DNA of 19,419 nt from Candidatus Cryosericum sp. (GTDB lineage Bacteria; Caldisericota; Caldisericia; Cryosericales; Cryosericaceae): positions 1 to 19,419 of the forward strand of contig JBNAWM010000013.1 of NCBI GenBank assembly GCA_049699855.1. Direction: 5' to 3'. The position numbers and the translations under genes are program-made. Below the pieces are notes generated by a model. That model had not been told where the DNA came from. It saw only the letters and a program-made list of their open reading frames with translations, and ran no database searches. This document shows positions 556-18,539 of the stretch, in pieces. The stretch's first letter is position 1. Each line of letters opens with the position of its first letter.

Positions 556-1254
556 CTAGTCCTGCTGTGGCTCCTTTACAGGTGGCCGCAGGATGCCATA
601 GCCCCGCCCCCGTTCCGTCGTGATGAGGGGAACGTGCGGATCAGTGTCCACTTTCGCACGGACGTACCGAACGTGTGTCCGCAGGGTGTCGGACCACAGT
701 GAGGTCTGCTCACCCCACAGGTGATCCTCAAGTTCCTCGCGGGGGACGATGCGTCCCTGATTGCGCAGGAGGTACTCCAGCAGTTGCTCTTCCTTGGGAC
801 TCAGGACTACCGGCTGTCCCGCCACCATGCAGAGATGCGACGCCACATCCAGCACGACCCTCCCCGCAGTAAGAACAGTCGTCTTTGCGTCGTTGCGTCG
901 CCGAAGCAACGCGCGCACACGCGCCAGCAGTTCACTCAGATCGAACGGCTTGGTAAGGTAGTCATCGGCGCCGGTGTCGAGGCCCGTCACCTTGTCCCTG
1001 GTCATGTCACGTGCCGTCAGGATCAGGACCGGCATGGCGTACCCTTCGGAGCGGATAGTCCGCAGGAACGTCAGCCCGTCCATATGCGGCATCATCAGAT
1101 CCAGCAGAATCAGGTCATATGCTTGTTCGACGTGTACCTTTCCCAATGCATCCCGTCCATCAGCGGCGGTGTCGACAGTCAGTCGCTCATGTGTCAGGGC
1201 ATCGGACAGAGCGGACAACATCGTCGGCTCGTCTTCAACGATCAGTACTCGCAC
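556..1254 (-). CDS. OmpR/PhoB-family DNA-binding response regulator (orphan; divergent from peptide operon 1)
   Basis: Receiver motifs LIVEDE, DLILLDLMMP, LILTAR, GADDYLTKPF. Winged-helix end ITTERGRGY. GTG start with AGGAGG just upstream on the minus strand. Confidence 0.95.
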   Translation of the reverse strand: MRVLIVEDEPTMLSALSDALTHERLTVDTAADGRDALGKVHVEQAYDLILLDLMMPHMDGLTFLRTIRSEGYAMPVLILTARDMTRDKVTGLDTGADDYLTKPFDLSELLARVRALLRRRNDAKTTVLTAGRVVLDVASHLCMVAGQPVVLSPKEEQLLEYLLRNQGRIVPREELEDHLWGEQTSLWSDTLRTHVRYVRAKVDTDPHVPLITTERGRGYGILRPPVKEPQQD

Positions 1255-1333: not shown

Positions 1334-1365
1334 TTAACGCTCAGTTAACATTGGAGGTGTATGGT
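1334..1365 (+). promoter_or_regulatory. OmpR-type direct-repeat operator plus -10 box of peptide operon 1
   Basis: TTAACG(1334-1339)-ctcag-TTAACA(1345-1350)-TTGGAGGTG-TATGGT(1360-1365). 26/32 identical to the element at 13259-13290 on the minus strand. Confidence 0.75.
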
Positions 1366-1406
1366 TCCTGTACAGCCGCGTGGCTGAATCGGGTAAGGAC
1401 GCACAT

Positions 1407-1655
1407 ATGAAGAAGCGAAGGACCGTACTCCTGTGGACCATTGGTCTCATTGTGCTGCTTCTGGTCTCAATCGTTGTCCCTGGTGTTCATGCGGTGTCTG
1501 CCGATTGTTATTACAACTGTTACTGGGAGACCGCCTGTATCGTCAACCACCAGACGGGATGTGAACAGATCTTTGGCGTGATAACGTTGATCAACGGTGA
1601 ATGGGTTTGTCTCGAACAGTGCGCTAATCCTTGCTCTACTAACTATCTGAAGTAA
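1407..1655 (+). CDS. Secreted cysteine-rich small peptide A (82 aa; about 50-aa mature region with 7 Cys)
   Basis: ATG 1407 after AAGGA. Basic n-region MKKRR, hydrophobic h-region, VHA/VSA signal peptidase I-type site. Mature DCYYNCYWETAC...CLEQCANPCSTNYLK. First gene after the conserved promoter. Confidence 0.8.
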   Translation: MKKRRTVLLWTIGLIVLLLVSIVVPGVHAVSADCYYNCYWETACIVNHQTGCEQIFGVITLINGEWVCLEQCANPCSTNYLK

Positions 1656-1685
1656 CTGAAGATGACAAAGGGAGGGCATGATGCC

Positions 1686-4259
1686 ATGAATTACAGAATC
1701 TCACGACGCATGATCGTAGTGTTCGTCGTGCTCCTGCTCACCAGCATCATCGCCACCTCGGTCGCCGCCATGGGCCTCGCGCTGCGCTCAGCTCAACGGG
1801 AGAGCAAGGAGGAAGAGCTGCGCAAGATGGGGTGCGACGTCGTCGATGTCCTGTGTGCCAGTCGAGTAATCACGGAGGCAGGGGCGAAAACCAGTCTTGC
1901 CATGTACCGATCAGTGGGGCTGAGCCCTTCATTCACAGCGGGTACGTCCCCGACGGGCATGATGGACATCATGATGAAGGGGTTCCTTCAGGCAAAAGAG
2001 TTTTCGTTTACGATAACTGCTCCCGTCAACGATCCTGCCAACAAAGGGGTTGGCGGGACAACGTCGGTGTTCTCTGCGATGGACTTCGCAGCTATGCGGC
2101 GCATCCCCGGCGTACGCGACTTGTGGCTCAAGACCTTCGGAACCTCGCTCCTGACGCTTTCCGTCAGTGGCAGACAGCAGATGGTCCCCAGTCTTCCCAT
2201 GTCACCCGGTCAGCTGACTCTCTGGAACTTCACCATCGAGCGCAGGAGGGACTTCACCGTGTCTGATGGGCAGAATGATGTCATTATCGGCAGCACGCTG
2301 GCCGTCCTCCTGTTTTCCAGCGGGGACCCGGTAGGCCAGACCATCTCTGATGGGATTCGGACATATCGTGTCATCGGTGTCCTGGCCAAGAAAGAGGAGG
2401 GCTTGGCTTCATCGAGTGGCTACCTCTCCCCATACAGTGACCCAAACTCTACCATCTTCCGCTACGCTCCTGCCACCCCTGTCGGCCAGGAAAAGGACAC
2501 GCCGATGATCCAGATCCTAACGGAACCCGGTACCAACCCTGACATTGCCGGGGCGGGGTCCTCCACATGTTCCGCTTCAAAGAGAATGCGGATACCACTT
2601 TGCAGGCCAGTTCGCGCAACAACATGGTCCCCAGCGTGGTTGGGATCACCGTGCGGACCAGAACTCTGTCCCTGCTGACCGGGTACGCCCTCCTCACGCT
2701 TGTTGGCTGCCTCCTGGCTGTGGCAGTCTCCCTGTACACCGAGTTCGCCACCCGGGTCCGGTCCGTTGCCGTCCGGCGCGCACTGGGCACTTCGCGTCGT
2801 TCAGTGACCCTGGGGTTAATAGCAGAGGCATGTTTAATGGCTATAGCCGCCTGGGGGTTTTCCAGCCCTATTCTCCTTACCTTGACAACGAATACTGCAG
2901 ACCCTGCTTCAGAGTGGCGCCGTCGATGTCATCAACGAGAGTCGCTCTGCAGCGGTCACCAGTATAGGACCTGGCTACCTGGATCTCTCCCTGCGCCTTT
3001 CTCCACTTGCCTTCCTGGCATCCCTCGTGCTGCTTCTGGTCATTGCTATCCTGTCCGCTCTCATCCCTGCATGGGGCATCTTCCACATTAACCCCGGTAC
3101 CGGCATCCGGTTCCGCGGCGGGGTCCACTCACGCTTCGACGTCCTGAAGCTGGACCTGTGGGGCTCGCTGGCGGTTGCTCTGTGCCTACTGTTCGCCTTG
3201 CTCCCTCTGTCTGAGCTGTCTCTCGGGCTTCAGCGCGACCGCGAGTTCGCGCTACTCCTCGGACGCAATGTGGCCCGCATCAGCACATCCTCTAGCACGC
3301 CGGTCACTCCCGAACAGCTGCAGCAGATCAAGGATTGCCTGGGGCAAGCCGGCTATCCGATAGCCGAGCTCAAGAATACACAGATCTTCTGGACCAGCGC
3401 CGAAGGGGACCCCCATCAGTGGATCAGGGTTGTGTCCGGCGATACCGCCTTGCCCACCTTCTACGGACTTACACTTACGCAGGGGACCAGAATGGGGATG
3501 TCACCGGAGGTCTCTGGTCTCGAAGCGGTTGTGGGTCCTGACGTCTGGAAGATGCTCCACGAGACCCCCAACCAGGGAGAAGGCAGCCTGGGTTCCACCT
3601 TGCTGAGCAGCGGCGCGGTCCGGATCGTGGGCCAGTTTGACGTTACCGACAGTTCTACCATGAACCGTACCCTCTTCACGACCCTCGATACACGGACCAG
3701 CATGTGGGTAGGAAGCAGCAAGAGCACCACTCTGCTCGTTGCAGGGGTCCAGCCAGGCGTGCTGCAGATTGTTGAGGACATAGTGCGTTCCTGTGTCTCC
3801 CCCGCTGTAGTTGCCTCTCTGGGATTCCTCGACGGAGGCGCCCTGGTAAACGCCATCGATGCATCGACTCAGGCGCTCGCCGGCTTCCTCATGCTGTTCG
3901 CTGCCTTTGGGCTCCTGGAGGGCTTTGTCGTCTTCGCCAATCAACTCTACCTGTATGCCCAGCTCAAGGGACGGGACACGGCCGTCCGCAAGGCCCTGGG
4001 GACATCTCAGGCGCAGCTCACACGGCTCCACCTGACCCACAACGTCCTGGTCGCTGGCATCTCGGTCGTCATCGGGACGCTCCTGATGGTGCTGGTAGCG
4101 GTCGCGACCGAGCGGCCATCGTATGCCATCACGTCGACGTCGTTCCCATGGTTGGTCGTCGCCTGCCTGCTTGCCTTCATCGTGTCACTCGTCGCTGCTC
4201 GGAGCCAGGCCCGGCGTTCAGGGAATGTCCTTCCTTCCCGTGAACTGAGGAACCTGTAA
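1686..4259 (+). pseudogene. Duplicated MacB/FtsX-type ABC permease, broken by two frameshifts (about 2550-2558 and about 2885-2891)
   Basis: Three ORF pieces join into one reading frame of about 857 codons. MacB periplasmic motifs VIIGSTLA..LF..GDPVGQTI..YRVIGVL. Two FtsX signatures, VAVRRALGTS and TAVRKALGTS. Colinear with the intact paralog at 9245-11686. GGAGG at 1671-1675. Confidence 0.8.
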
Positions 4260-4280
4260 CTACACCTAGGAGGAGCAACT

Positions 4281-4949
4281 ATGATCCGGCCGACCAACAT
4301 TCAGAAGGTGTACGATGGTGTGCGCGTTCAGGTACGGGCATTGCAGGGGGTAGATCTGACGCTCGAGAACGGTGACTACGTCTCTATTCGAGGACGATCG
4401 GGATCGGGCAAGACGACCCTGCTCAACGTTGTGGGAACATTGGACACGCCTACGGACGGCAAGGTCCTGTATGATGCGATCGACCCGTTCAAGTTCGACG
4501 ATGCGGAGTTGTCCCGATTCCGCAATCACAGGATCGGTTTCGTGTTTCAGGAGTTCGAACTGCTGCCGGAGTTGTCGGTCTTGGACAATGTGGCGCTCGT
4601 CCCCCGTATCGGAGGCGTGAAGAGGAAGGAGGCCCAGCGGATGGCTGCAGCCGTCCTGGAACGTGTCGGCATGACCGATCGCATGCAGCACTATCCATCC
4701 GAACTCTCCGGTGGTGAGAAGCAGCGAGTCGCTGTAGCGCGTGCCATCGTCAACGACCCAGAAATCATCCTGTGTGACGAACCCACCGACGAACTGGACG
4801 AAGCAAATGTGACTGCCGTCATGCAGGTGCTGGATGACCTCAACCACTCGGGCAAGACTCTCCTGGTGGTTACGCACTCCGACGAGGTGGCGGAAAATGC
4901 GCACCGACGCATGTACATGGTGGATGGAGCCCTGAATGAGGCCTCGTAG
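4281..4949 (+). CDS. ABC transporter ATP-binding protein, LolD/MacB family
   Basis: Walker A GRSGSGKT, Q-loop IGFVFQ, signature LSGGEKQRVA, Walker B IILCDEPT, H-loop VTH. RBS AGGAGG. Confidence 0.95.
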   Translation: MIRPTNIQKVYDGVRVQVRALQGVDLTLENGDYVSIRGRSGSGKTTLLNVVGTLDTPTDGKVLYDAIDPFKFDDAELSRFRNHRIGFVFQEFELLPELSVLDNVALVPRIGGVKRKEAQRMAAAVLERVGMTDRMQHYPSELSGGEKQRVAVARAIVNDPEIILCDEPTDELDEANVTAVMQVLDDLNHSGKTLLVVTHSDEVAENAHRRMYMVDGALNEAS

Positions 4950-6057
4950 ACGAGGGATCGTCCTGATCGCGGCAGCCGTTGTGGGCGTGGCAGCCATGAT
5001 CGCCGTCATCCTGATGGCTCGCTCATCGGGGGCGCAACGGTCTGCACTGGCAACGGCCCGCTCGCAGCTTGAGCAGGAACAGGCAGCTGCCCTGAACCCG
5101 GGTGATTTATTCCCCCTCGACAGCCTTCCGACCACAGCAAATGGAGCTGCGATCCAGTTGCGTGGCACTCAAACGTGCTGCATCATTGCCGCCCCGGGTT
5201 GTGCTTCGTGCTCGGAGTATGCAGGGGTGGCCGAAGGACTGGGTGTGGCATACCCGGGTATTCAGTTTGTCCTCCTGATGGTGGGGACAGATGGAAGTGG
5301 TGTCGTTGCTGGGCCGCACATGCGGCTGGCAGTCGACCAGGAGAGGAAAGCCGCCAGCAAGTTGAGCGGCCACGACGCTGTTGCCACGGCGGTCTTTCTC
5401 ATCAGGGAGAATGGTACGATTGCGTGGAAGGCAATAGGCGTCAAGCTGCAACTGGTATGGAACGAGTTGAACGAGGCGTTGGGCCAGTTCAGTCACTCTC
5501 AATCAGGGGTGCTCTCGGGCAGCGAGGTAACGCCGAAGGTGGGCGAGAAGCTGGTGTCCCCCTTGTGCGCCGGGACCCCTGTGGCCCCAGTCTCCACGGA
5601 CAGAGATACTGTCTTCCTGCTGTCTCATTCAACCTATCTGAGTACAGACAGCATGAAGCTGCAGGCAGACTTGCTTGCACAGCTGAGCGATGTGGCTGAC
5701 CCCGTCCTTGTTGTGTCTATCTATGACGAAGCGCGCTGGCGTGCCGCACTTGACTATCACGACCTGTACAGCTCGAAGTCTACCCAGACATCAGCGCAGA
5801 ATATGCGCCTAGTTCCCTCCATCAACCGGGGTGAGGTGGCCAAGGTCGAGGAGTATGTCGATCAACACCATCTCGGCGTCACGGTCATCGCCGATACGTG
5901 CTGGTCCTATGTGTTGACATACGGACAGTCATCCTCCACGAGTCTGATCGTCGTGGCTCCGGACCGCACCGTGAAAGCAGTGGTCCCGTACAGCCTTACG
6001 GGTTCATCCGCAGACAGAACGCTCGCCCGCTACGTGAGGAGCATCGTCCGTCATTGA
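4936..6057 (+). CDS. Membrane-anchored tandem thioredoxin-fold (TlpA/ResA/redoxin-like) protein, CASC in domain 1
   Basis: N-terminal TM helix; LNPGDLFP, APGCASC, VFLIRENGTIAWK. Second redoxin-like domain (PKVGEK...VTVIAD...LIVVAPDRTVK) lacks CxxC. Overlaps the ATPase stop. Homologous to 12009-13124. Confidence 0.7.
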   Translation: MRPRRRGIVLIAAAVVGVAAMIAVILMARSSGAQRSALATARSQLEQEQAAALNPGDLFPLDSLPTTANGAAIQLRGTQTCCIIAAPGCASCSEYAGVAEGLGVAYPGIQFVLLMVGTDGSGVVAGPHMRLAVDQERKAASKLSGHDAVATAVFLIRENGTIAWKAIGVKLQLVWNELNEALGQFSHSQSGVLSGSEVTPKVGEKLVSPLCAGTPVAPVSTDRDTVFLLSHSTYLSTDSMKLQADLLAQLSDVADPVLVVSIYDEARWRAALDYHDLYSSKSTQTSAQNMRLVPSINRGEVAKVEEYVDQHHLGVTVIADTCWSYVLTYGQSSSTSLIVVAPDRTVKAVVPYSLTGSSADRTLARYVRSIVRH

Positions 6058-6146
6058 TGAAGAGGAGCGGGCTGAGGGGGAATGATGTGGTGGAGGTTTG
6101 TCTCCAGCGTGAGACTGGACACGAGAACTTACAGTGGAGGTACAAC

Positions 6147-7325
6147 ATGAGCACAAGAGCACGTCTTGCAGTGGTATTGGTCATACTCATCGGCGTCGTT
6201 GCCGGGTGTGCACCAAAGATCCCGGTGACTGAGAATAACGGCACGAGCATTGAAATCAGCGCGATGGTGAAGGCCAATGCCGAATCGCCGGGATACGACG
6301 TCTACGATGCAGTCCTATTGTCGTGGAACGTGAGTCAGAACAGACTGGCGAGCACCAGTGCCCCCGTCCTTCACGTGAACGACAAGAATATTGGGTATGG
6401 ACTGCATTGGTCTGCTGGGACACCTCTCCTTGCCGTCTAGCACTGGGGTCGGGAAGGAACATCAACGGAGGCGACGGCGCTTCTCACGGTGACGTCAGAC
6501 GATGCCCAGCTCCTCGTGCCACCGGAGGAGATATGGTATTCCCAGCAAGCAGGAGGCTCTGTTTGCCGATGGTACGCGCCGGAAGAGCATGCCTTCGTCG
6601 CGGCTCCAAGGGAGCTCAATGCGGCTCCACAGAAGACATTGAACGGCAAAGCCATCACGGTAACACAATATCCTCTTGCATCGGGATTCACCATGCAGAC
6701 TCTGAGCGTTCCGATTCCATCCGGCCTGATGCAAGTCATGGTCGTCTATGGTAGTGGAAGCCTCGATAGCGGATTTGTCCTTGCTGACGTGCCCAGCGCT
6801 GCCGCCACCAATGACGCAGGATTCGATCTCTGGCTTATTCGTATGAGCGGTGGGAAGGGGACATGGATGAAATGCAGCAATGCATCAGGCTTTGATGGCA
6901 ATCTTGTGACGGACGCTGATGCAAGTTTCGCCCGCATCGGATCACTGCTCTATTTCACCCATGGACATGGAAAAGTCTACTGCATCGATACAGTAGCGGC
7001 CGTTCCCGCGGTGACTGTGCCCGAGAAGGTCAACGTGCTTCTGGATCAGCTCTATCAACAGGGTCCGACGGATGCCGAGCGACCGCTCCAGGCTTCGTTG
7101 GCAAGCGAAGGTGACCTGCTGATCATCGGGTATCCGGACGCCGGATGGAACGAGCTGTACTACGCGCTGGATTCCTCTGGCAAGGTTCTGGGGCGCCTCC
7201 GTGCAACCGAGGCGTCGGTGACGAGTTTCGATGCTCAGGATCGGCAGGGTTTCTCCTTGCCGCTCAGGGGTATGCAGTGGACAGTTCTGTTCCCGTCGGT
7301 GGACCTGTTTAAGGGCACCCTATAG
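6147..7325 (+). pseudogene. Lipoprotein of unknown function (about 392 codons) interrupted by in-frame TAG at 6438-6440
   Basis: GGAGG 6136-6140, ATG 6147, lipobox VVAG-C. After the TAG the same frame continues without a stop (HWGREGTSTEATALLTVTSDD...) to TAG 7323-7325. Confidence 0.65.
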
Positions 7326-7357
7326 GCGAGCAAGATGGTTTCATGGGACGGTTGACC

Positions 7358-8629
7358 ATGAGAAGGGCCGGTGTCGTACTTGTTGCAATGGTCTGCCTCG
7401 CCTTCCTTCTTCCTGGCTGTGCCGAGAAGACCACCGGAGTCTCTGACAATACCTCTGCTACTCCTGTCCCGATCGCCGTCTTCCTTTCTGAAATCTGTGG
7501 CGAGTGCCGGGAGGTTGCTGTCTATCTTGACCAGCTGACTGCCTCTGGCATCCCCGTTGAGGTCCATCGGTACAGCTTTGGGGATCTCACCAGCGCATCC
7601 CTTCGCCACAACCTGGACCTCCTCTACAACGTTCCTGAGGAAGACTGGTATGTGATCCCGATTGTTTTCATCGGCAGGACTGTCCTCATCCGTGCAGACG
7701 ACATCCAATCTCGCCTCCCTTCTCTCCTTGTCACTGTAACTGCCCAGGATACTGCCTTTCTCCTCAGTCATCTGACAACAACAACGACAGCACCAGATAC
7801 TTCGCAGTCAGCCTCCACTCTTTCCATCGGTACGGTCCTTGGTGCCGGTCTGATCGACGGCATCAATCCCTGTGCCTTTGCCACCCTCCTCTTCTTCCTC
7901 TCCTACATCATTCTCCGCAGTGGTTCCCGCAGACAGATCCTCCTGACAGGCTGCTCCTTTGCTGCTGGTATCTTCTGTGCCTACTTCCTTGCCGGTCTTG
8001 GTCTGGAGCGGGTCGTCACCAGTACCAGCTGGTTCAGTACCATCGCCCGCTGGTTCTACGGGGTCCCTGGTCTCCTGTCCGCCTTCCTTGCTGCCCTTTC
8101 CTTCCGTGATGCAGTCCGTTCTGCTCATGGACATGCTCAGGAGATGACCCTGCAGCTCCCCGGAGAGGAGAAGAGCAGGATCCGTTCCCTGATCCGTGCC
8201 GTCGCAGGCAGCCGCCTGATGCCAGTCTGAGCATTCCTCGTCGCATTCCCGGTAGCTCTTCTGGAGTTCCTCTGCACGGGCCAGACCTACCTGCCGACCA
8301 TCGGACTCATCATTGCCAACCAGGGTCTTCACAGCCATGCTGTCCTCCTGCTTCTCCTGTACAACCTCCTGTTTATCCTCCCCCTTCTTGTCATCACCGT
8401 CCTTGCAGCAGCAGGGGTCTCCTCCGAGCGTCTGCGCTCCTGGTTCACCCGCCATCTTCCTGCCTCCAAGCTGCTCGACGGTCTCCTCTTCACCCTCTTT
8501 GCCGTCCTGTTCCTGTCCAGGTGGTGGAAAGGAAGGTACGTAGGCGTATCGTTGCTCTTCGATCCGACCGTCGACCAAATGGATACATCTCGTGGCCCTG
8601 TCTGCGATCTCAAGATTGTGGGTCACTAG
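7358..8629 (+). pseudogene. Lipoprotein thioredoxin/glutaredoxin-like domain (CGEC) fused to CcdA/DsbD-type transmembrane domain; in-frame TGA at 8228-8230; natural 3' end apparently missing
   Basis: Lipobox-like LLPG-C, SEICGEC, VIPIVFIG, then GLIDGINPCAF. Past the TGA the same frame gives LLEFLCTGQTYLP and YNLLFILPL, the second Cys-containing half of CcdA/DsbD-like proteins. Frame runs into the convergent ATPase gene until TAG 8627-8629. Confidence 0.8.
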
Positions 8630-9220
8630 GACGAGACTCACTCCTTCCGTGGCGTAGATGTCCTCAAACAGGGCGATAATTTCATCGGTTGCGCGCGTAT
8701 CCAGGTTGCCGGTCGGCTCATCGGCCAGGATGACGGTCGGATGATTGATCAATGCGCGTGCAATAGCCACTCTCTGTTCTTCTCCTCCTGACAGTTCTGA
8801 AGGGAGGTGAGTTGCTCGTTCCCACAGATTGACGCGCTCCAGCAGTTTCATCGCCCGCTTCTTGCGTTCATTCTTGTCCCGAAGCCCGTCATAGTACAGG
8901 GGAAGCGCAACGTTCTCCCACGCCATCAAGTCCGGCAGGAGATTGTACGTCTGGAATACAAAGCCGATCGCCTTTCTCCTGAGCCGTGACGCGCTCGTGT
9001 CGTTCAGGTCTGTGATGTTCCTGTCCTCGAAGTACACCGCTCCCCGTGTCGGTGTATCAATAGTTCCCATGATGTTGAGGAGTGTTGTCTTGCCCGACCC
9101 AGACGTGCCGGTGACAGAGACGTACTCGTGCTCTGCAAGTTCAAGTGACACTCCCTGCAGCGCATTGACCTCAACTCCTTTCTTCTCATAGACTTTCCAG
9201 ACATCTTCCAGGCGTATCAC
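7808..9220 (-). CDS. ABC transporter ATP-binding protein, LolD/MacB family (real domain about 8555-9220; remainder is run-on antisense to the ccdA-like gene)
   Basis: GTSGSGKT, IGFVFQ, LSGGEEQRVAIARAL, ILADEPTGNLD, VTH, ending IHLVDGRIEE at about aa 222. GGAGG upstream of GTG 9220. No stop at the expected position. Confidence 0.9.
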   Translation of the reverse strand: MIRLEDVWKVYEKKGVEVNALQGVSLELAEHEYVSVTGTSGSGKTTLLNIMGTIDTPTRGAVYFEDRNITDLNDTSASRLRRKAIGFVFQTYNLLPDLMAWENVALPLYYDGLRDKNERKKRAMKLLERVNLWERATHLPSELSGGEEQRVAIARALINHPTVILADEPTGNLDTRATDEIIALFEDIYATEGVSLVLVTHNLEIADRATRCIHLVDGRIEEQRYAYVPSFPPPGQEQDGKEGEEETVEQLGGRKMAGEPGAQTLGGDPCCCKDGDDKKGEDKQEVVQEKQEDSMAVKTLVGNDESDGRQVGLARAEELQKSYRECDEECSDWHQAAACDGTDQGTDPALLLSGELQGHLLSMSMSRTDCITEGKGSKEGGQETRDPVEPAGDGTEPAGTGDDPLQTKTGKEVGTEDTSSKGAACQEDLSAGTTAENDVGEEEEEGGKGTGIDAVDQTGTKDRTDGKSGG

Positions 9221-9244
9221 GGTTCCTCCCTATGAAGCAAGTAG

Positions 9245-11686
9245 CTATTCCCTGTGCAGCGCCTCTACCGGTGTGATGCTGGAGGCATACCGTGCCGGGA
9301 TGTACGAGGCGAGCAGGAGACACGCACAACAACTCACGACAAAGCCGAGCAGGAGGCCGGGTTGCAGAGAGAACGTCATTCCTTCGCTCTTGGCCAGGAC
9401 AAAACTTGCCAGAGCACCCCCGCCAACCCCGATACCCAACGCTGTCAGACCGATCCTTAGTCCCTTCCACAGGAACTCCTGCTGAATCATCCGTCGCTCT
9501 GCCCCGACAGCCCGCTTGATCCCAATCTCTCTGGTCTTCTGGACCCCTTCGATCAGGAACATGGCTGTAAGATAGAGCAATGCCGACAGGAACGAACAGA
9601 GGGTGAAGACCAACAACAGGCCATACGCCCCTTCTCGAGAACGGATAATGGCACCGATGGTTTCGCGCACGTCGATGGCGCTTCCCCGAGAATATCCTGG
9701 GTGTCTGCTCTCGAGGAGACTGAGGATGGTTTCTGTGATCCCCTCGTTATCCTGTCTGTCAATAGGCTTCACCAGCAGGAGGACTGACAACTCTTGAGGA
9801 CTCAGAATCGTATAGGAATCTGCCAGAGGAACGTATACAGTGTCGTCTATCAAGGAGGAATGAGCTTGGAGAATGCCTATGACGTCGTCTCCCATGAGAG
9901 TGTCACCGATTTTCAGATTCATGGACTCTGCAACATCAGTGCCTATGACGCATCTTGCAGCGTCAGCATCGGTGAGGAATCTGCCCGCCTCCATCGTCAT
10001 GCCATAGATCGCAGGAAAATCCTCGGTGGCACCGGAGATGCGTAGGCTGAAGTCTCCTCCCGACGGCAGCGGAATGGTCGCACTCATTGGGGTGACTATC
10101 CTGCATCCAACCAACGCCCGGCCCGCTAGGGCTTCGCGGATAGCGCGGTAGTCGTCAAGGGAGTACTTGGCCCCCACGTCAGCGTAGGGAATCGTAGATT
10201 GTACTGGGCTGATCCAGAAGGCCTCTTCGGGAACGTCAAGGAGGAGGTCTTGAGTTGTCTGCTGTATAGTGTTCATCTGAGAAACCGAGATGAACATGGC
10301 GCCAACGGTGACGATCATCACGAGAGCCAGGGCAACGATGAATCGTGTCTGCCTCTGTGCCATATTGGCAGACGGCGACAGGAGACGGGAGGGACCCCCT
10401 TGCAGCGCCCGGAGAGTGACCGCGGCGGAAACTGTGACAACAAGGACGGCCAGCAACCCGAATGCGGCCACAACGGCGGTAGTGTCGATGCGAAGAGGGA
10501 GAACATCCGCGGCGGATCGATAAGGGCTGACATACTCTCCCAAGGCATTGTACTTGGTGAACAGAGGGAGAAGCAGTTGGAGCGTTACAACCGCGATCGG
10601 GAAGATCATGCAGAGCAAGCTCAGAAGGACAGCAGCGTGTTCACGCGTGACCTGCACCTTCGTTGCGCCGATGGACATCCTGATCCCCTGTTCGCGTTGT
10701 CTCGATGACATGTTGAAATATATGAGACTGCCGATGGTCATGATTCCAATGAGAAGGGTGAGGGCGGACGATGCGGAAAGAGTCTTGACACGCTCTCTCC
10801 GCACTTGGACGCCAAGGGAATTCTCAAATTCCCACGTTGAGGATGAGGTCACCGCATTGTACTTCTCGTTACCAAGGATTTCCCGGATCTTCGCCAGCAG
10901 CCTTTGTTCATGTCCTTCTTGTGGGATGATCCACAATTGAGGTCTTGCTGGCAGAGGGATGATCTGACCGTCGCCCCGCACATAGGACGTCATACGTGTT
11001 CCTGGCCGATACGGTATCACGACGGAGGCTGGCAGGCTTGTGCTTCCGAGGTACGAAGAGGGTATACGGGCGAGGACTCCGATGACCGTGAACTGTTCCT
11101 TCCCCGTATTGGTATACACCGTGACGCTCTTACCAAGTATGTCGGGTTCCGTGACGATGTTCTTTGCATAGTCTTCTTGTATCAGAAGAACGTTGAGGGG
11201 GTCGCTTTTCTGGAAGTACCTCCCCTCCTTGAGAGGCGGGTGGAGTGCCGAGAGATAATCAGCTGTCATCGGACAGACTACGTCGCCGAGTCCAACGGGG
11301 GCTTCCACCGTCCAACGAATGATGGAATCCATTTGATCGAATTCAAAAACGGCTGCGATGTCACTCAGACGTCGGATACGGGCAACCTCCATGTTGGTGA
11401 GGGCGGGAGGGGGGGTGTCATGCTGGGACAGGAATGATGAGGCAGTGATTTCGGCGGCGGAGTAGTAGACAAGATTGTTCAGCTTGTTCATCCCCTCGGA
11501 GACTCCCATGATCAGTCTCGAGAAGTATCCCAGCTCACCAACTCTGATGGTAGAAGCGTAGGGGGTTCTCCGCATGTAATCGTCCAGTTCCCTGTCGAGG
11601 CTCGTGATGTTGACGCAGACGTAGAGAGTGCAGAAAGACGCCATGAACATCACAATGGCAACAATAGCGTTGATCATCTTTCTCAT
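9245..11686 (-). CDS. Duplicated MacB/FtsX-type ABC permease (intact; start ATG 11686 or GTG 11701)
   Basis: Two periplasmic domains (LKEGRYF...FTVIGVL; MEAGRFL...CVIG...VIGIL). Two FtsX signatures REQGIRMSIGAT and REIGIKRAVGAE. C-terminal YIPARYASSITPVEALHRE. Confidence 0.92.
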   Translation of the reverse strand: MRKMINAIVAIVMFMASFCTLYVCVNITSLDRELDDYMRRTPYASTIRVGELGYFSRLIMGVSEGMNKLNNLVYYSAAEITASSFLSQHDTPPPALTNMEVARIRRLSDIAAVFEFDQMDSIIRWTVEAPVGLGDVVCPMTADYLSALHPPLKEGRYFQKSDPLNVLLIQEDYAKNIVTEPDILGKSVTVYTNTGKEQFTVIGVLARIPSSYLGSTSLPASVVIPYRPGTRMTSYVRGDGQIIPLPARPQLWIIPQEGHEQRLLAKIREILGNEKYNAVTSSSTWEFENSLGVQVRRERVKTLSASSALTLLIGIMTIGSLIYFNMSSRQREQGIRMSIGATKVQVTREHAAVLLSLLCMIFPIAVVTLQLLLPLFTKYNALGEYVSPYRSAADVLPLRIDTTAVVAAFGLLAVLVVTVSAAVTLRALQGGPSRLLSPSANMAQRQTRFIVALALVMIVTVGAMFISVSQMNTIQQTTQDLLLDVPEEAFWISPVQSTIPYADVGAKYSLDDYRAIREALAGRALVGCRIVTPMSATIPLPSGGDFSLRISGATEDFPAIYGMTMEAGRFLTDADAARCVIGTDVAESMNLKIGDTLMGDDVIGILQAHSSLIDDTVYVPLADSYTILSPQELSVLLLVKPIDRQDNEGITETILSLLESRHPGYSRGSAIDVRETIGAIIRSREGAYGLLLVFTLCSFLSALLYLTAMFLIEGVQKTREIGIKRAVGAERRMIQQEFLWKGLRIGLTALGIGVGGGALASFVLAKSEGMTFSLQPGLLLGFVVSCCACLLLASYIPARYASSITPVEALHRE

Positions 11687-11717
11687 GTCGGGAAACCCCA
11701 CGAGTCAGTTTGCGTTG

Positions 11718-12002
11718 TCAAGGGCAGTAATTCTGGCACCCAAGAATGAGATAGCCAGTGCAAATACCGGAATAGGGATAGTGGGTTGGTGTTGTGCACA
11801 CTCCTTCATAGACATTCCAGTATCTGATTCCGTTGAGGGAACAGTCGAAAAGACACCCGATACAGTACGCTCCGGGTACGTAGCACTCCGCTGGCCAGTC
11901 TTCCGCAAGAACGGTTCTGCCCAAGGGGCTCAGAAGACCTGCCAGCAAGATAGCGCAGAGTAGGAATAGAACGGTCATCCGACAGCGTCTCACGTTTGTC
12001 AT
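11718..12002 (-). CDS. Secreted cysteine-rich small peptide B (94 aa; about 61-aa mature region with 8 Cys)
   Basis: Strong RBS AAGGAGGT 8 nt before the ATG. Signal peptide ending V-L-A. Mature EDWPAECYVPGAYCIGCLFDC...CQNYCP. Fits between the thioredoxin gene and the permease. Confidence 0.85.
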   Translation of the reverse strand: MTNVRRCRMTVLFLLCAILLAGLLSPLGRTVLAEDWPAECYVPGAYCIGCLFDCSLNGIRYWNVYEGVCTTPTHYPYSGICTGYLILGCQNYCP

Positions 12003-12008
12003 ATAGTA

Positions 12009-13124
12009 TTACCTCCTTTCTTCTAGGACCTTCTTGCACTCTCTGAAGAGATTGGCACACTTGTCTGGCGTATCGAACTTGACCGCATTGATGTTCAATA
12101 CCTGTCCCTCGGCATCCAGCATGCACATGAAGGGACCGCCTACCAAGGCAATTCTGTTGGAGATCTCGAAGAAATCATCTTCGATCACAGCCGCGCTCTT
12201 GAAGTCCTTTGTCTCTTGCAGCACGTACGCTAAGTCGATTTGCCTGGACAATTCCGCCTCTTTGGCCTCATACTCAAGTTGTTTCAGGGAAAAGCGTTCC
12301 GCAAAATCCAGGTTGCGTTGGACAGTATCCTCCGTGATGCCTGCGAAAACGATTACTTTGTTGACGGCAACATCATTTGCCAAGGCAGATGCCGACAGGG
12401 TCTCCACAAGATCCTTGCTTGCCTTGCTGGAAGAGTACAGGAAGAGCATGAGAGTCGGTTTTCCCAGATAATCGGTTGGCAAGTTGATCGCTGTTCCTCT
12501 GTCGCTGTAAGTGATCTTAGGAAAAGGTTTCCCGATGTCGATGTTATCCTGGTAGCCATCAAAGACCGTCTTGCCGAGGGAGAAATCTCTGATCCTCTCT
12601 TCGTATTTCTTGCAGTCTGTTATCAAGAAGCCCGTGTTCTTCCACACAACTCGATTGCTGTCATCGACAAAGAAGATGCTCGGGGTGCTGGGTTCTCCAA
12701 AGGTTTTATAAAGATGACTGGTATGATCGGCGATGATGTGGAAATTGGGGTCAGATTTCAGCTCGGCATAGATCAGGGGGATCTGGTCACTCTTCTCTAT
12801 ATAGCAGAAAGAAACATCTCTGAACTCCCGCACCCATTCGATCAACGGAAATGTGAGATAGGTACAACTGCCGCACGCTTTGTTACTAAAGATCAGTATT
12901 TTGCGTCCCTCAAGAACAATGCTGTTGTTGTTGATATCACGTGCTTGTTTCTCAATGACCGGGACGCTTCCTACAGGAAGCGATTGCTTGGGGACAAACG
13001 CTGTGCTTGTCAGGATGTTTGTCGGTCTCTTGCCGGAGAACAGGAACAGTACCGCTAGTAAGAGCGCTGCACATAGTGACACCGCAACGACGATCCTCGT
13101 CACGACCGTTCGAGGTCTTGTCAT
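12009..13124 (-). CDS. Membrane-anchored tandem thioredoxin-fold (TlpA/ResA/redoxin-like) protein, CGSC in domain 1 (371 aa)
   Basis: ATG 13124 after GGGAGGGAGAG. TM helix; KILIFSNKACGSC, FHIIAD, STPSIFFVD..RVVWK. Second domain IGKPFP...GKPTLMLFLYSSSKAS has Ser where CxxC would be. Confidence 0.8.
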   Translation of the reverse strand: MTRPRTVVTRIVVAVSLCAALLLAVLFLFSGKRPTNILTSTAFVPKQSLPVGSVPVIEKQARDINNNSIVLEGRKILIFSNKACGSCTYLTFPLIEWVREFRDVSFCYIEKSDQIPLIYAELKSDPNFHIIADHTSHLYKTFGEPSTPSIFFVDDSNRVVWKNTGFLITDCKKYEERIRDFSLGKTVFDGYQDNIDIGKPFPKITYSDRGTAINLPTDYLGKPTLMLFLYSSSKASKDLVETLSASALANDVAVNKVIVFAGITEDTVQRNLDFAERFSLKQLEYEAKEAELSRQIDLAYVLQETKDFKSAAVIEDDFFEISNRIALVGGPFMCMLDAEGQVLNINAVKFDTPDKCANLFRECKKVLEERR

Positions 13125-13258
13125 CTCTCCCTCCCCACATGTCCTTCTTGCAGGTTCTTCGTCTCGACCAATTGCCATGTAGAACAACTCACTCAGTCGA
13201 TTGACAATGTTTCCATTCCTTTTCTGACAAGATCGGTCCCTTGCTCTTTGTCGCACGT

Positions 13259-13290
13259 ATCATACTCCTCCAACGTTAAAGGAACGTTAA
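13259..13290 (-). promoter_or_regulatory. OmpR-type direct-repeat operator plus -10 box of peptide operon 2
   Basis: Minus strand reads TTAACG-ttcct-TTAACG-TTGGAGGAG-TATGAT, with the same spacing as 1334-1365. Confidence 0.75.
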
Positions 13291-15843: not shown

Positions 15844-15899
15844 TACGCCAGGAAGTTCAAAAAGAGCTTCCAATAATCTTGGCACACAGGAGGTGCTGG

Positions 15900-16442
15900 A
15901 TGAAACAGAGAATCGTAGTGAGTGTAGCACTGGCAGGTTTGATGGTCGCAAGCGCAGTCCTTCTTGTTGGAAGCCATAAGGTGTTTGCGGCAGGAACCGC
16001 GGCTGTTCCTACGCAGGCGACCGTCGCGGCAACTGCAGGCGATACAGAGACCGCCGACAGCAACATTCAGGAGCCGAGCTACACCGGAAGCATCAAGGTG
16101 GCTGACACCACTGCGGCGAACGAAGCAGACGAGAGTGCCGCTCTTCAGGGAAGCGCGAAGATTGCACAAGCCGACGCTGAGAAGGCTGCGCTGGCAAAGC
16201 TCCCCGGAACGGTCGTCAAGACGGGACTTGAGAATGAGAATGGGTATCTCGTCTACAGCGTCACCATCAAGGATGCTCAGGGCGCACTGAGCGAGGTCAA
16301 GGTCGATGCTGGAACTGGTTCGGTTCTCACGATGCAGGCAGCGGACGGAGCCGAGGAAAAGAGCACGGAAGCTGGTGGCGAGAAGGCCTCGACCACTGCT
16401 GACACAGACAGCGTCCAGGAGGAAGTTCAATCCGGGAACTAG
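15900..16442 (+). CDS. Secreted PepSY-domain protein (180 aa)
   Basis: AGGAGGT RBS, ATG 15900, signal peptide ending VFA. PepSY motif AKIAQADAEKAAL..PGTVVKTGLENENGYLVYSV...EVKVDAGTGSVL with acidic flanks. Confidence 0.9.
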   Translation: MKQRIVVSVALAGLMVASAVLLVGSHKVFAAGTAAVPTQATVAATAGDTETADSNIQEPSYTGSIKVADTTAANEADESAALQGSAKIAQADAEKAALAKLPGTVVKTGLENENGYLVYSVTIKDAQGALSEVKVDAGTGSVLTMQAADGAEEKSTEAGGEKASTTADTDSVQEEVQSGN

Positions 16443-16462
16443 CTTGTCTGCCTGTTTCACAG

Positions 16463-16491
16463 AAAACTCCGGGGACACCCCCGGAGTTTTT
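16463..16491. terminator. Intrinsic terminator after the PepSY gene
   Basis: AAAACTCCGGGG-acac-CCCCGGAGTTTT(T): perfect 12-bp stem ending in a U-tract. Confidence 0.85.
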
Positions 16492-16582
16492 CTCATCGCA
16501 CAACGGGACTTTTAGCATACAATGGCTTGCAGCAGCGTGTCCATAGAGACCAAGGGGTCCAGCCGCTGGAAAGAGGAGAACC

Positions 16583-17257
16583 GTGCGTATACTAGTGGTT
16601 GAAGACGAGCGTTCCCTGTCCGATGCAATTTGCGAGGGTTTGAGAGACAATTTCTTTGCGGTGGACCAGGCATTTGACGGCCGGGAGGCCTTGAGCAAGA
16701 TCGAGGTCGAATTGGCCTATGATCTCATCATTCTGGATATCATGCTTCCGAAGCTTGATGGCATGACCGTGCTGCGCGAGCTCCGCGCGCGCGGACACAA
16801 GATGGCCGTGCTCATGCTGACAGCGCGAAGCGGCGTTGACGACAAAATCGAGAGTTTTGTGGGAGGCGCGGATGATTATCTCACCAAGCCTTTTGACTTC
16901 CGCGAGTTGCTTGCCCGCGTCCATGCTCTGCTCAGGCGTGAGAAGAGCGAGAAGACATCCGTCATCAGGATCGGCGATTTGACAATCAACACCGCAACAA
17001 ACGTTGTCATGCGAGGTGGCAGAGCCATCGAGCTGACCAGGAAAGAATATCAGATCCTCGTCTACCTGTCTCTCAACAGGGGCAGAGTCGTTCCAAAGGA
17101 GGAACTCGAGAATCATCTCTGGGATGAGCACGCGAGCCTCTGGTCTGACACGCTCAGGACCCATGTCAAGAACTTGCGCAAGAAGATCGAGGGGGACGGC
17201 AGGATGGAACTCATCAAAACGTTGCGGGGCATTGGCTATGAAATCGACGCAGATTGA
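16583..17257 (+). CDS. OmpR/PhoB-family response regulator
   Basis: LVVEDE, DLIILDIMLP, LMLTAR, GADDYLTKPF, IKTLRGIGY. GAGGAG RBS before GTG. Overlaps the kinase gene. Confidence 0.96.
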   Translation: MRILVVEDERSLSDAICEGLRDNFFAVDQAFDGREALSKIEVELAYDLIILDIMLPKLDGMTVLRELRARGHKMAVLMLTARSGVDDKIESFVGGADDYLTKPFDFRELLARVHALLRREKSEKTSVIRIGDLTINTATNVVMRGGRAIELTRKEYQILVYLSLNRGRVVPKEELENHLWDEHASLWSDTLRTHVKNLRKKIEGDGRMELIKTLRGIGYEIDAD

Positions 17258-18539
17258 CCGGAAAATCCGAAGGGAGAAGACCAAGCTGTCGGTGCAGTAT
17301 GCGATGGTCACACTCGTCATCGTCGTGCTGCTGATGGTCTCGTTCTACGTGATCTACGCCAGGAATCTCTATGCCAGCTTTGACGCCAGTATCGCTCAAC
17401 GGGCAGCGTCACTTGCCGCAGTCCTGTCCAGCCGGGAAGAGCTGACCCCTGAGACATTGAAGTCGATGAACCTTTCCCAGAACCCTTTTCAAGCCAGCAA
17501 CGAAGTGATTGAGATCACCGATGCAAAGGGGACGATCCTCTTCTCATCTGCTGAGACAGCTGCCGTCAAGATTGTCATCACACCGGGGTCATTTTCGTCT
17601 GGGACATATCCTGAGGATGTAAACAACCAGACAACGCTGGTCAAGATGAGAGCTTATACATCTCCCGTTGAACAGCATACGTACTACGTCAGCGTCGCAC
17701 GAACGTATGATGAGATCGACGCCGCTCTTGGAGGCATCGCCTCCTCGTTCCTGATGACGATTCCTTTTGTGGTCCTCTTGACAGGCCTCGTTTCATACAA
17801 GCTGGCCGGGCTGGCTATCCGCCCGATCGAGGAATCGTACAGGGAGTTGAAGCAGTTCACGGAAGATGCGTCTCATGAGCTGAAGACGCCACTTGCCGCC
17901 ATCAAGGCAAACATTGATGTGGCACTGTCCAAGAATGTCGTTGAGATGGAGTACTATCGAAAGAAACTGTCTGTCATCAACGAGTCCGTTGGCAGGATGG
18001 TGCATATCACCGAGAGCCTGCTGTACCTGTCGCGACTGGACAACCAGGGTGTCGAGAACAGGAGAGAGAGCATAGACGTCCATGCACTGCTTGAAGAAAG
18101 CAGAGAGCACTTTGTGGACGCGGCCCGCCAGCGGGCGGTTGCTCTTGAGGTCGCGGATTTTGGGAGGCTGGAAGCCCAAACCAACCGGGAGGTGCTGGAA
18201 GAGATCGTCGCCATCCTCGTCGAGAATGCGGTGAACTTCAACAGGCCCGGAGGGAAAGTGACGCTGGCCGCCCGTTCAGCCAGGGATGCCATCGAACTAT
18301 CCATTGCGGACACGGGTATTGGCATTGCGCGAGAAGATCTGCCTCGCATCTTCGACCGCTTCTACCGAGCCGAGAAGTCACGTTCGCGAGCAACAGGCGG
18401 AACAGGGCTCGGGTTGGCCATCACTCGCGACCTTGCCGAACTGATTGGCGCGCACATTCAGGTGGAAAGTCAGGAAGGAGTGGGCTCAGTCTTCACCGTG
18501 GTTATCAGCCAAAGCGCACGAAAGAGCGGCGGAAAGTAA
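17238..18539 (+). CDS. Membrane sensor histidine kinase (two TM helices, HisKA, HATPase)
   Basis: H-box FTEDASHELKTPL, N-box LVENAVNF, G1 IADTGIGI, F-box IFDRFYR, G2 GGTGLGL. ATG 17238 overlaps the regulator 3' end. Confidence 0.96.
   Translation: MKSTQIDRKIRREKTKLSVQYAMVTLVIVVLLMVSFYVIYARNLYASFDASIAQRAASLAAVLSSREELTPETLKSMNLSQNPFQASNEVIEITDAKGTILFSSAETAAVKIVITPGSFSSGTYPEDVNNQTTLVKMRAYTSPVEQHTYYVSVARTYDEIDAALGGIASSFLMTIPFVVLLTGLVSYKLAGLAIRPIEESYRELKQFTEDASHELKTPLAAIKANIDVALSKNVVEMEYYRKKLSVINESVGRMVHITESLLYLSRLDNQGVENRRESIDVHALLEESREHFVDAARQRAVALEVADFGRLEAQTNREVLEEIVAILVENAVNFNRPGGKVTLAARSARDAIELSIADTGIGIAREDLPRIFDRFYRAEKSRSRATGGTGLGLAITRDLAELIGAHIQVESQEGVGSVFTVVISQSARKSGGK

Follow-up and report, generated by a model that had tools for sequence, protein, structure and literature searches.

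The window analysed here is the whole of contig C13 (GenBank JBNAWM010000013.1, 19,419 nucleotides) of the Candidatus Cryosericum genome G000 (assembly GCA_049699855.1; 1.63 Mb, 98% complete), and it contains two copies of a four-part module, each formed by a small cysteine-rich peptide with a signal-like N-terminus, a fused double MacB_PCD/FtsX permease, an ABC ATPase and a tandem thioredoxin-fold protein. As described in an earlier note on this DNA, and as confirmed by open reading frame (ORF) coordinates and domain matches, the two modules lie on opposite strands and differ in gene order. The parts of the module are of known kinds and its peptide and thioredoxin families are new; the whole constitutes a real, apparently undescribed peptide system, restricted to Caldisericota as far as found. 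The features of the window are the following:

559..1254, reverse strand: response regulator of the OmpR family, transcribed away from the left module
1334..1349, forward strand: first TTAAC-N6-TTAAC direct repeat (11-bp period), with a -10-like TATGGT at 1360-1365
1407..1655, forward strand: left peptide, 82 residues, signal-like N-terminus, 7 core Cys
1686..4259, forward strand: left fused double MacB_PCD/FtsX permease, with two frameshifts, near 2550 and at 2888
4281..4949, forward strand: left ABC ATPase of the MacB/LolD type, 222 residues
4936..6057, forward strand: left tandem thioredoxin-fold protein, with an N-terminal hydrophobic segment, CASC in domain 1 and no CxxC in domain 2
6147..7325, forward strand: lipoprotein of a multicopy Cryosericum family, accessory, with TAG at 6438
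7343..8540, forward strand: fusion of a glutaredoxin-like domain (CGEC) and a CcdA-like membrane domain, interrupted by TGA at 8228 and lacking its original stop
8530..9220, reverse strand: right ABC ATPase, stop codon lost, the frame continuing to 7808
9245..11701, reverse strand: right fused double MacB_PCD/FtsX permease, 818 residues, intact
11718..12002, reverse strand: right peptide, 94 residues, signal-like N-terminus, 8 Cys
12009..13124, reverse strand: right tandem ResA/TlpA-like thioredoxin, with an N-terminal helix, CGSC in domain 1 and SKAS in domain 2
13275..13290, reverse strand: second TTAAC-N6-TTAAC repeat, with a -10-like TATGAT at 13264-13259

The module was searched for in 93 Caldisericota genomes from seven families, which are kin and hence not independent (f2 and f3 denote two of these families besides Cryosericum). 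Peptide profiles gave 14 matches in ten genomes with E values of 1.3e-7 or lower, together with one weaker true match; seven further rows (E above 1e-3) were left out of the count. All 15 peptide loci stand directly upstream of a permease of the module family and they fall in three of the seven families. The tandem thioredoxin gave 15 strong matches in 11 genomes, 12 of which share an operon with a peptide, the remaining three being that of the G011 left module, split over two contigs, that of G017, cut by a contig end, and a peptide-less one in G021. The peptide follows right after the thioredoxin in eight of eight metagenome loci. The recurrence of a Cys-rich ORF with a signal beside the thioredoxin and the permease, which the earlier note had put forward as a check with these proteins as baits, was in fact observed, in three families. 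In 30 more distant permease loci of other phyla (284 kb) no peptide ORF was detected under either of the two filters described below, and a search of sequencing runs returned none that reaches half of the window (best run, a 0.13 share). We found no description of the module in the literature searched, in which subscription papers were largely missing and supplements excluded, nor any bacteriocin report for Caldisericota in the same literature; no named system of this composition was matched in family tests either, in line with the earlier note. The accessible part of PMC10356935 contains no envelope information.

The two modules had been described as twin convergent operons. This arrangement is present in G000, but the layout is incidental and the copy partly pseudogenised. 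A functional unit made of the convergent pair was considered and rejected, as the convergent layout was seen on a single contig in G000 and G014 alone: the left module is alone at the site in G010 and G021, the right module is co-oriented at locus L045, and f2 and f3 loci have one module. Compared with G014 and G017, the left permease of G000 has gained two nucleotides near 2550 and lost 11 at 2888 (it is undamaged, about 860 residues long, in G014, G008, G010 and G021), the lipoprotein gene has TAG in place of CAG at 6438, and the CcdA-like gene, of which G000 has no second copy, has TGA in place of TGG at 8228. The eighth and last Cys of the left peptide is replaced by Tyr (seven Cys vs eight in the orthologues; the near-identical P0168 retains the Cys), and the right ATPase has 470 residues after the loss of its stop, vs 223 in G014. 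TGA 8228 as a selenocysteine or otherwise recoded codon was ruled out, since the orthologues encode Trp (TGG) here and the locus is damaged at several further points. Several independent lesions suggest that the decay of the G000 copy is genuine, the left module being probably dead and the right one probably impaired, and G014, whose contig C2 bears the entire cluster free of lesions, is the genome for further work. Decay at the module locus was frequently seen across the genus Cryosericum. The left ATPase reads DEPTDELD at 4780-4800, vs DEPTGELD in the orthologues, possibly another lesion; in G008:C17 (L015, 2404-3364) the right thioredoxin is broken into pieces of 262 and 80 residues; and at L045 (3048-4335) a deletion has brought the damaged left permease and the 3' portion of the CcdA-like gene together in a fusion, and the left peptide is gone at the same place as in G021.

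Both small ORFs are genes, judging from their sequence conservation. They are under purifying selection, with ratios of nonsynonymous to synonymous substitution (dN/dS) of 0.12-0.28 for the right and 0.27-0.42 for the left peptide (computable in 14 of 21 pairs, the remaining seven being saturated at synonymous sites), i.e., 0.12-0.42 overall, and ribosome-binding sites are conserved before both. A strict filter for a signal and six Cys, written with the peptides already known, retained exactly two ORFs in the 1.63 Mb genome, namely the two peptides; a looser signal/Cys filter gave 22 ORFs in G000, many of them apparently shadow frames. A basic n-region and a hydrophobic h-region are present in 17 of 17 peptides, and some signal regions have no obvious cleavage site. 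In RNA libraries, contigs from relatives cover the left peptide (X16 and X17) and also the right one (X17), a weak hint of transcription, as they come from one study, are of unknown strand and possibly derive from DNA. Contigs in X15, X16 and X17 also match positions 1508-1677 and 1558-1671 of the window, i.e., the left signal region and the permease start, with different letters in the core, pointing to additional alleles of the peptide.

The left and right peptides could not be aligned, as had been noted by eye (profile comparison, P 0.6). Their cores have 50-68 residues, are rich in aromatic residues, Gly and Pro, and hold an even number of Cys (6, 8 or 10) in 26 of 30 distinct cores (the count of seven for P0160 was made by eye, and that of eight for the G008 left peptide, also made by eye, was borne out by the computed count). 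Six Cys never vary in the right family, where the remaining ones shift or arise in pairs; the left family keeps a fixed Cys scaffold, and its stretch from Cys4 to Cys5 is variable. The right core (about 61 residues, 8 Cys, net charge -4) is predicted to be all-beta, the best of five models reaching a predicted local distance difference test (pLDDT) score of 89 and the others 47-79. Foldseek retrieved nothing for this model at E 0.001 and no clear structural match was obtained (best VIA, Z 3.1); neither did fold searches give a clear match to actifensin or laterosporulin, nor an ESM Atlas search with the peptide a usable one, failures that do not by themselves show a new fold. The comparison to defensins and knottins made in the earlier note was not supported, the cores being neutral to acidic and without a defensin or knottin fold match. 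Nothing in Pfam or NCBIfam exceeded the cut-off for the peptides; the left one scored 19.2 bits against TIGR04117 (cut-off 50), and the scanned orthologues have no such match.

Homology of the machinery of the two modules, also proposed before, is supported for the ATPases (46% identical) and, at the profile level, for the tandem thioredoxins (303 aligned columns, P 90.6, E 1.3e-6), although the latter give no significant BLAST match to each other. The tandem thioredoxin is, on the basis of its model, a ResA/TlpA/DsbE-like oxidoreductase, as its fold, CxxC motif, cis-Pro loop and N-terminal anchor are all those of this class: the right protein (pLDDT 88) is modelled as an N-terminal helix and two ResA/TlpA-like domains, with ResA, DsbE, DsbF and StoA as fold neighbours, and domain 1 has invariant C84/C87 and T147-P148 in seven sequences. 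Domain 2 has a CxxC motif in f2 and f3 and lacks it in Cryosericum. Being doubled and below the Pfam cut-offs, the protein forms a separate and narrow family, with 17 of 1.84 billion representatives matching at E 1e-10. More distant full-length tandem thioredoxins were observed (P0012, P0014, P0015, P0019 and P0156, some with a lipoprotein-like N-terminus) and may point to the presence of this system in further phyla; four of them were used to scan genomes, and no locus was confirmed.

Between the two modules, where the earlier note had placed a single thioredoxin-CcdA gene, there is indeed a glutaredoxin-CcdA-like gene, but the lipoprotein gene at 6147-7325 had been overlooked. The glutaredoxin-CcdA fusion has two invariant Cys in its membrane domain, and this domain is placed with CcdA-named ESM Atlas clusters at 0.95-0.96, yet PF02683 (DsbD_TM) is unmatched. 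Its wide spread, in nine of nine f2, 25 of 26 f3 and 11 of the 22 other Cryosericum genomes, indicates that it is mostly a housekeeping gene (it was not found in the other four Caldisericota families), the gene in the window being a cluster-linked paralogue; G010 and G014 have such a cluster-linked gene as a second copy. A housekeeping pair formed by a single ResA-like thioredoxin and the glutaredoxin-CcdA fusion (L017, 8972-11157, and equivalents) was seen to be nearly universal in f2 and f3. The weak thioredoxin matches in f2 (E above 1e-16) correspond to a single-thioredoxin gene beside the housekeeping glutaredoxin-CcdA, and the peptide is absent from five scanned f2 regions of 12-20 kb with the single thioredoxin. 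A role in cytochrome c maturation system II (CcdA-ResA-ResBC) was ruled out: G000 has no cytochrome c assembly protein (PF01578, CcsA/ResC), and so heme attachment does not explain the redox genes.

The transporter of the module is a type VII (MacB/FtsX) ABC transporter. Both permeases match PF12704 and PF02687 twice each, the ATPases match PF00005, and the matches of the permease in the Protein Data Bank are MacB, YknZ and LolE/F. It is not a MacAB-TolC tripartite pump, there being no Omp85 (PF01103) or TolC (PF02321) match in G000, 98% complete, and no adaptor family among the module genes, the rest of the genome not having been searched for adaptors. Efflux across an outer membrane consequently does not explain these genes, and the transporter is better read as acting in release or immunity at the outer face than as an exporter of the kind used by enterotoxin STII, the parallel drawn in the earlier note. 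According to the accessible part of PMC5985334, proteins of the MacB type take up their substrates on the outer side, and homologues in monoderms protect against their own peptides, SDP and AS-48.

The permeases and the peptides vary together. A quick permease tree clusters by peptide type, and in ten left-module pairs peptide core identity (37-88%) follows that of the permease outer domain (49-81%), with the regulator at 83-96%. In the left module of G011 the core is 37%, the outer domain 51% and the regulator 96% identical; in its right module the peptide is 68%, the outer domains 68% and 58%, the thioredoxin 93% and the last membrane unit 97% identical. Permeases without a peptide were identified in G021 (where the peptide is deleted), in G017:C108, in G047 (two) and in G024 (three in a row). 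One of the G024 copies shares 95% identity with the permease that goes with the peptide in G060; this peptide was looked for in G024, a 99% complete genome, and not found. One of those of G047 is 74% identical to the permease of the G061 module. This fits what immunity, or eavesdropping, predicts, namely that a transporter is kept for a foreign peptide. The three tandem permeases of G024 (contig C1; L032, 8063-15824) share about 44% mutual identity and lie behind a 940-residue beta-propeller protein, with no ATPase alongside. A predicted complex of the right permease with the peptide core (scores 0.43, 0.01 and 0.01) was counted neither for nor against an interaction.

The promoter motif reported to be shared by the two modules was recovered as a TTAAC-N6-TTAAC direct repeat, with a -10-like hexamer about 10 bp downstream. 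G000 has four copies (0.02 expected; no copy at any of 15 other spacings): one before each module, and a divergent pair on contig C6 that separates a histidine kinase gene from a beta-propeller gene. In G014, G008, G021 and G011 these kinase and beta-propeller genes are next to the OmpR-family regulator found beside the left module; in relatives the kinase has 815 residues and both genes are preceded by the repeat, which is conserved in Cryosericum loci. Given this position, and the shape that OmpR-family boxes have, the repeat is likely the binding site of the neighbouring regulator, whose second-best NCBIfam model is of the heavy-metal type, below cut-off. The lipoprotein gene, which separates the left thioredoxin from the CcdA-like gene, is absent from the clusters of G008, G010 and G021; its family, without a Pfam match, is present in 15 of the 22 other Cryosericum genomes in up to seven copies, often clustered and several with stops, and looks like a variable surface or immunity-type family. 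Further along the window (15897-18539), and with no TTAAC repeat upstream, lie in succession the genes of a secreted protein with a PepSY domain, of another OmpR regulator (52% identity to the one at 559..1254) and of a histidine kinase. Elsewhere in the genome, an identical 126-residue frame occurs twice on contig C1 (83243-83623 and 106837-107217), revealing a duplicated stretch.

Recurrence, purifying selection, Cys parity, co-variation and the peptide-less permeases fit release of, and immunity to, a narrow-spectrum disulfide peptide. We propose, with about even confidence, that the module makes a narrow-spectrum antibacterial miniprotein. The peptide, with its hydrophobic N-terminus, would be exported by Sec and its signal cleaved; three to five disulfides would be formed and shuffled by the membrane-anchored tandem thioredoxin, with the glutaredoxin-CcdA protein feeding electrons to the isomerase step; and the two outer domains of the fused permease would bind the folded peptide, which would be removed from the membrane or the target at the expense of ATP, providing type VII release and self-protection. 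In Cryosericum the adjacent two-component system may control both modules jointly through the TTAAC repeat, and the antibacterial action would be directed at relatives without the matching permease.

Several observations weigh against this proposal. No DsbB or VKOR was found over cut-off in any of the 93 genomes and no Thioredoxin_4 (DsbA-like) match in G000, CcdA normally supplies reducing power, and among 155 exported-like G000 proteins 44 have even and 70 odd Cys counts (with a crude gene caller), i.e., no even-Cys bias. The missing DsbB/VKOR and the lack of bias explain the need for a dedicated catalyst, but supply no oxidant for it; a precedent exists in the clostridial DsbA recycled by small-molecule disulfides (PMC12453122, accessible part). 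Four of the 30 cores have seven Cys, each being without one Cys of its nearest relative, and two peptide loci (G024:C11 and G045:C183) have no upstream thioredoxin. Most of the spread in the co-variation between peptide and outer domain stems from one genome, G011; moreover, the peptide adjoins outer domain 1, and one recombination tract could yield co-variation without selection. The right core of G008 is 95% identical to that of the window, as against no more than 69% and 55% for the outer domains. Orphan receptors explain the peptide-less permeases as well as orphan immunity genes do. Finally, the net charge of the cores, -5 to +2, is neutral to acidic, unlike that of cationic defensins; however, since bacteriocins in general have a lower net charge than other antimicrobial peptides (PMC12648112, accessible part), acidic cores do not exclude a bacteriocin.

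The same genes could instead serve signalling, the peptide being a secreted, disulfide-stabilised pheromone and the permease a receptor or flux sensor that signals, as BceAB does, via the adjacent kinase and OmpR regulator. The repeat before both modules, the kinase and the beta-propeller gene would then suggest an autoregulated loop in Cryosericum, the acidic cores and the type-matched permeases would fit specificity groups, and MacB homologues of the BceAB type sense peptides (PMC5985334, accessible part). We nevertheless regard this as unlikely, as no two-component genes are annotated beside the modules of G043, G060, G061 and G024 and no matching upstream repeat was seen there, and as the regulator is still 96% identical where the peptide drops to 37%; pheromones, moreover, are usually smaller than cores of 50-65 residues. 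Clearly less probable is a role as an exported chelator, in which Cys kept reduced by a CcdA-thioredoxin chain would bind metal or sulfur species and the permease would recover or clear the peptide. CcdA-ResA chains do work reductively, and the acidic cores, the lack of DsbB/VKOR matches over cut-off in the 93 genomes and the heavy-metal model of the regulator, though below cut-off, point in the same direction; the Cys, however, are spaced widely over the predicted beta-sheet, change in pairs and flank a variable segment, the cores are rich in aromatic residues, and a metal ligand would not be expected to come in four types with little or no relation to each other, each with its matched permease.

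A small variable surface protein (an adhesin, phage decoy or enzyme inhibitor), extracted and placed by the permease as lipoproteins are by LolCDE, would account for a fused two-half permease that resembles the LolC-LolE pair, for the scaffold with a variable loop and for the signal regions lacking an obvious cleavage site. Intact permeases with no peptide, three in a row in G024, would however have nothing to place, and the distribution is patchy (10 of 93 genomes), which makes this reading improbable, more so than the chelator. Lowest of all we place a precursor peptide that would receive thioether or other modifications from an enzyme encoded elsewhere, e.g., a radical SAM protein, and we hold it to be highly improbable: G000 has 19 radical SAM genes and the left peptide matches the CxxxC radical SAM target model TIGR04117 weakly (19 bits vs a cut-off of 50), but the scanned orthologues do not, no modifying enzyme is annotated in the module loci, no radical SAM maturase occurs among the scanned window genes, and the Sec-type signal and the outer-face thioredoxin argue for chemistry outside the cell.

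Returning to the antibacterial miniprotein, the module might, in a broader and rather speculative extension, which we judge unlikely, represent a new class, namely multi-disulfide miniproteins of an unclassified beta fold in strict anaerobes without DsbB/VKOR, folded oxidatively by an undescribed route of the tandem thioredoxin and the atypical glutaredoxin-CcdA fusion, each peptide type being served by a fused type VII transporter of its own, with the orphan arrays as a memory of the peptides of rivals. The system provides about 30 natural disulfide-rich scaffolds without a family or fold match, from a deep-branching phylum; its matched and mismatched peptide-transporter pairs (G060 vs G024) make substrate recognition by MacB-type transporters directly testable; and it allows a clear test of the means by which several disulfides are formed outside the cell in a strict anaerobe that lacks DsbB and VKOR.

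Among known systems, ADOP (TIGR03434) and the darobactin transporter DarB share the duplicated MacB_PCD/FtsX architecture, but the module permeases score far under both cut-offs (114.8 and 76.4 bits vs 622.3 for ADOP, i.e., at most about 115/622; 21 of 700 for DarB) and the module has no radical SAM maturase. Sublancin is disulfide-bonded and encoded with BdbA/BdbB, a DsbB-type oxidant and a glycosyltransferase being part of its system; neither of the latter two was found in the module. Defensin-like bacteriocins have a cationic mature peptide, unlike the module cores (net charge -5 to +2). Actifensin and laterosporulin resemble the module as small multi-Cys bacterial peptides beside ABC transporter genes, but actifensin has a GA-type leader, and the accessible parts of the sources mention no thioredoxin for the former and no signal peptide for the latter (PMC6989792; PMC3293901). 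In the thermophilin 13 cluster thiol-disulfide oxidoreductases are encoded with a disulfide-bonded peptide (PMC10059821, accessible part); both thermophilin 13 and sublancin, however, have double-glycine leaders and peptidase-ABC exporters, none of which was found in the module.

Closer likenesses are found in three other systems. AS-48EFGH and YknWXYZ consist of a MacB-like permease and an ATPase that guard a monoderm from its own peptide (PMC5985334, accessible part), YknZ being also a structure match of the module permease; they differ in having a MacA-like adaptor, a single-unit permease and peptides that are not multi-disulfide beta proteins. The Escherichia coli STII route, with DsbA and MacAB-TolC, has in common with the module, as proposed here, Sec export, disulfides made outside the cytoplasm and a MacB-type transporter acting from the outer side (PMC5985334, accessible part), but G000 has no TolC/Omp85 match, the modules have no adaptor gene, DsbA/DsbB were not found, and the machinery is linked and dedicated in the module and housekeeping in the STII route. 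Lactococcin 972 (class IId) is a Sec-secreted unmodified peptide, active on close relatives, with an ABC transporter proposed for immunity (PMC4786598, accessible part); there is no sequence or Pfam match between the two, and the module, unlike lactococcin 972, has three to five predicted disulfides, a dedicated thioredoxin, a CcdA-like protein and a fused double MacB permease. By the criteria examined, the module is a member of none of these systems, and by analogy it would function most like lactococcin 972 combined with the STII route and with protection of the AS-48EFGH/YknXYZ kind.

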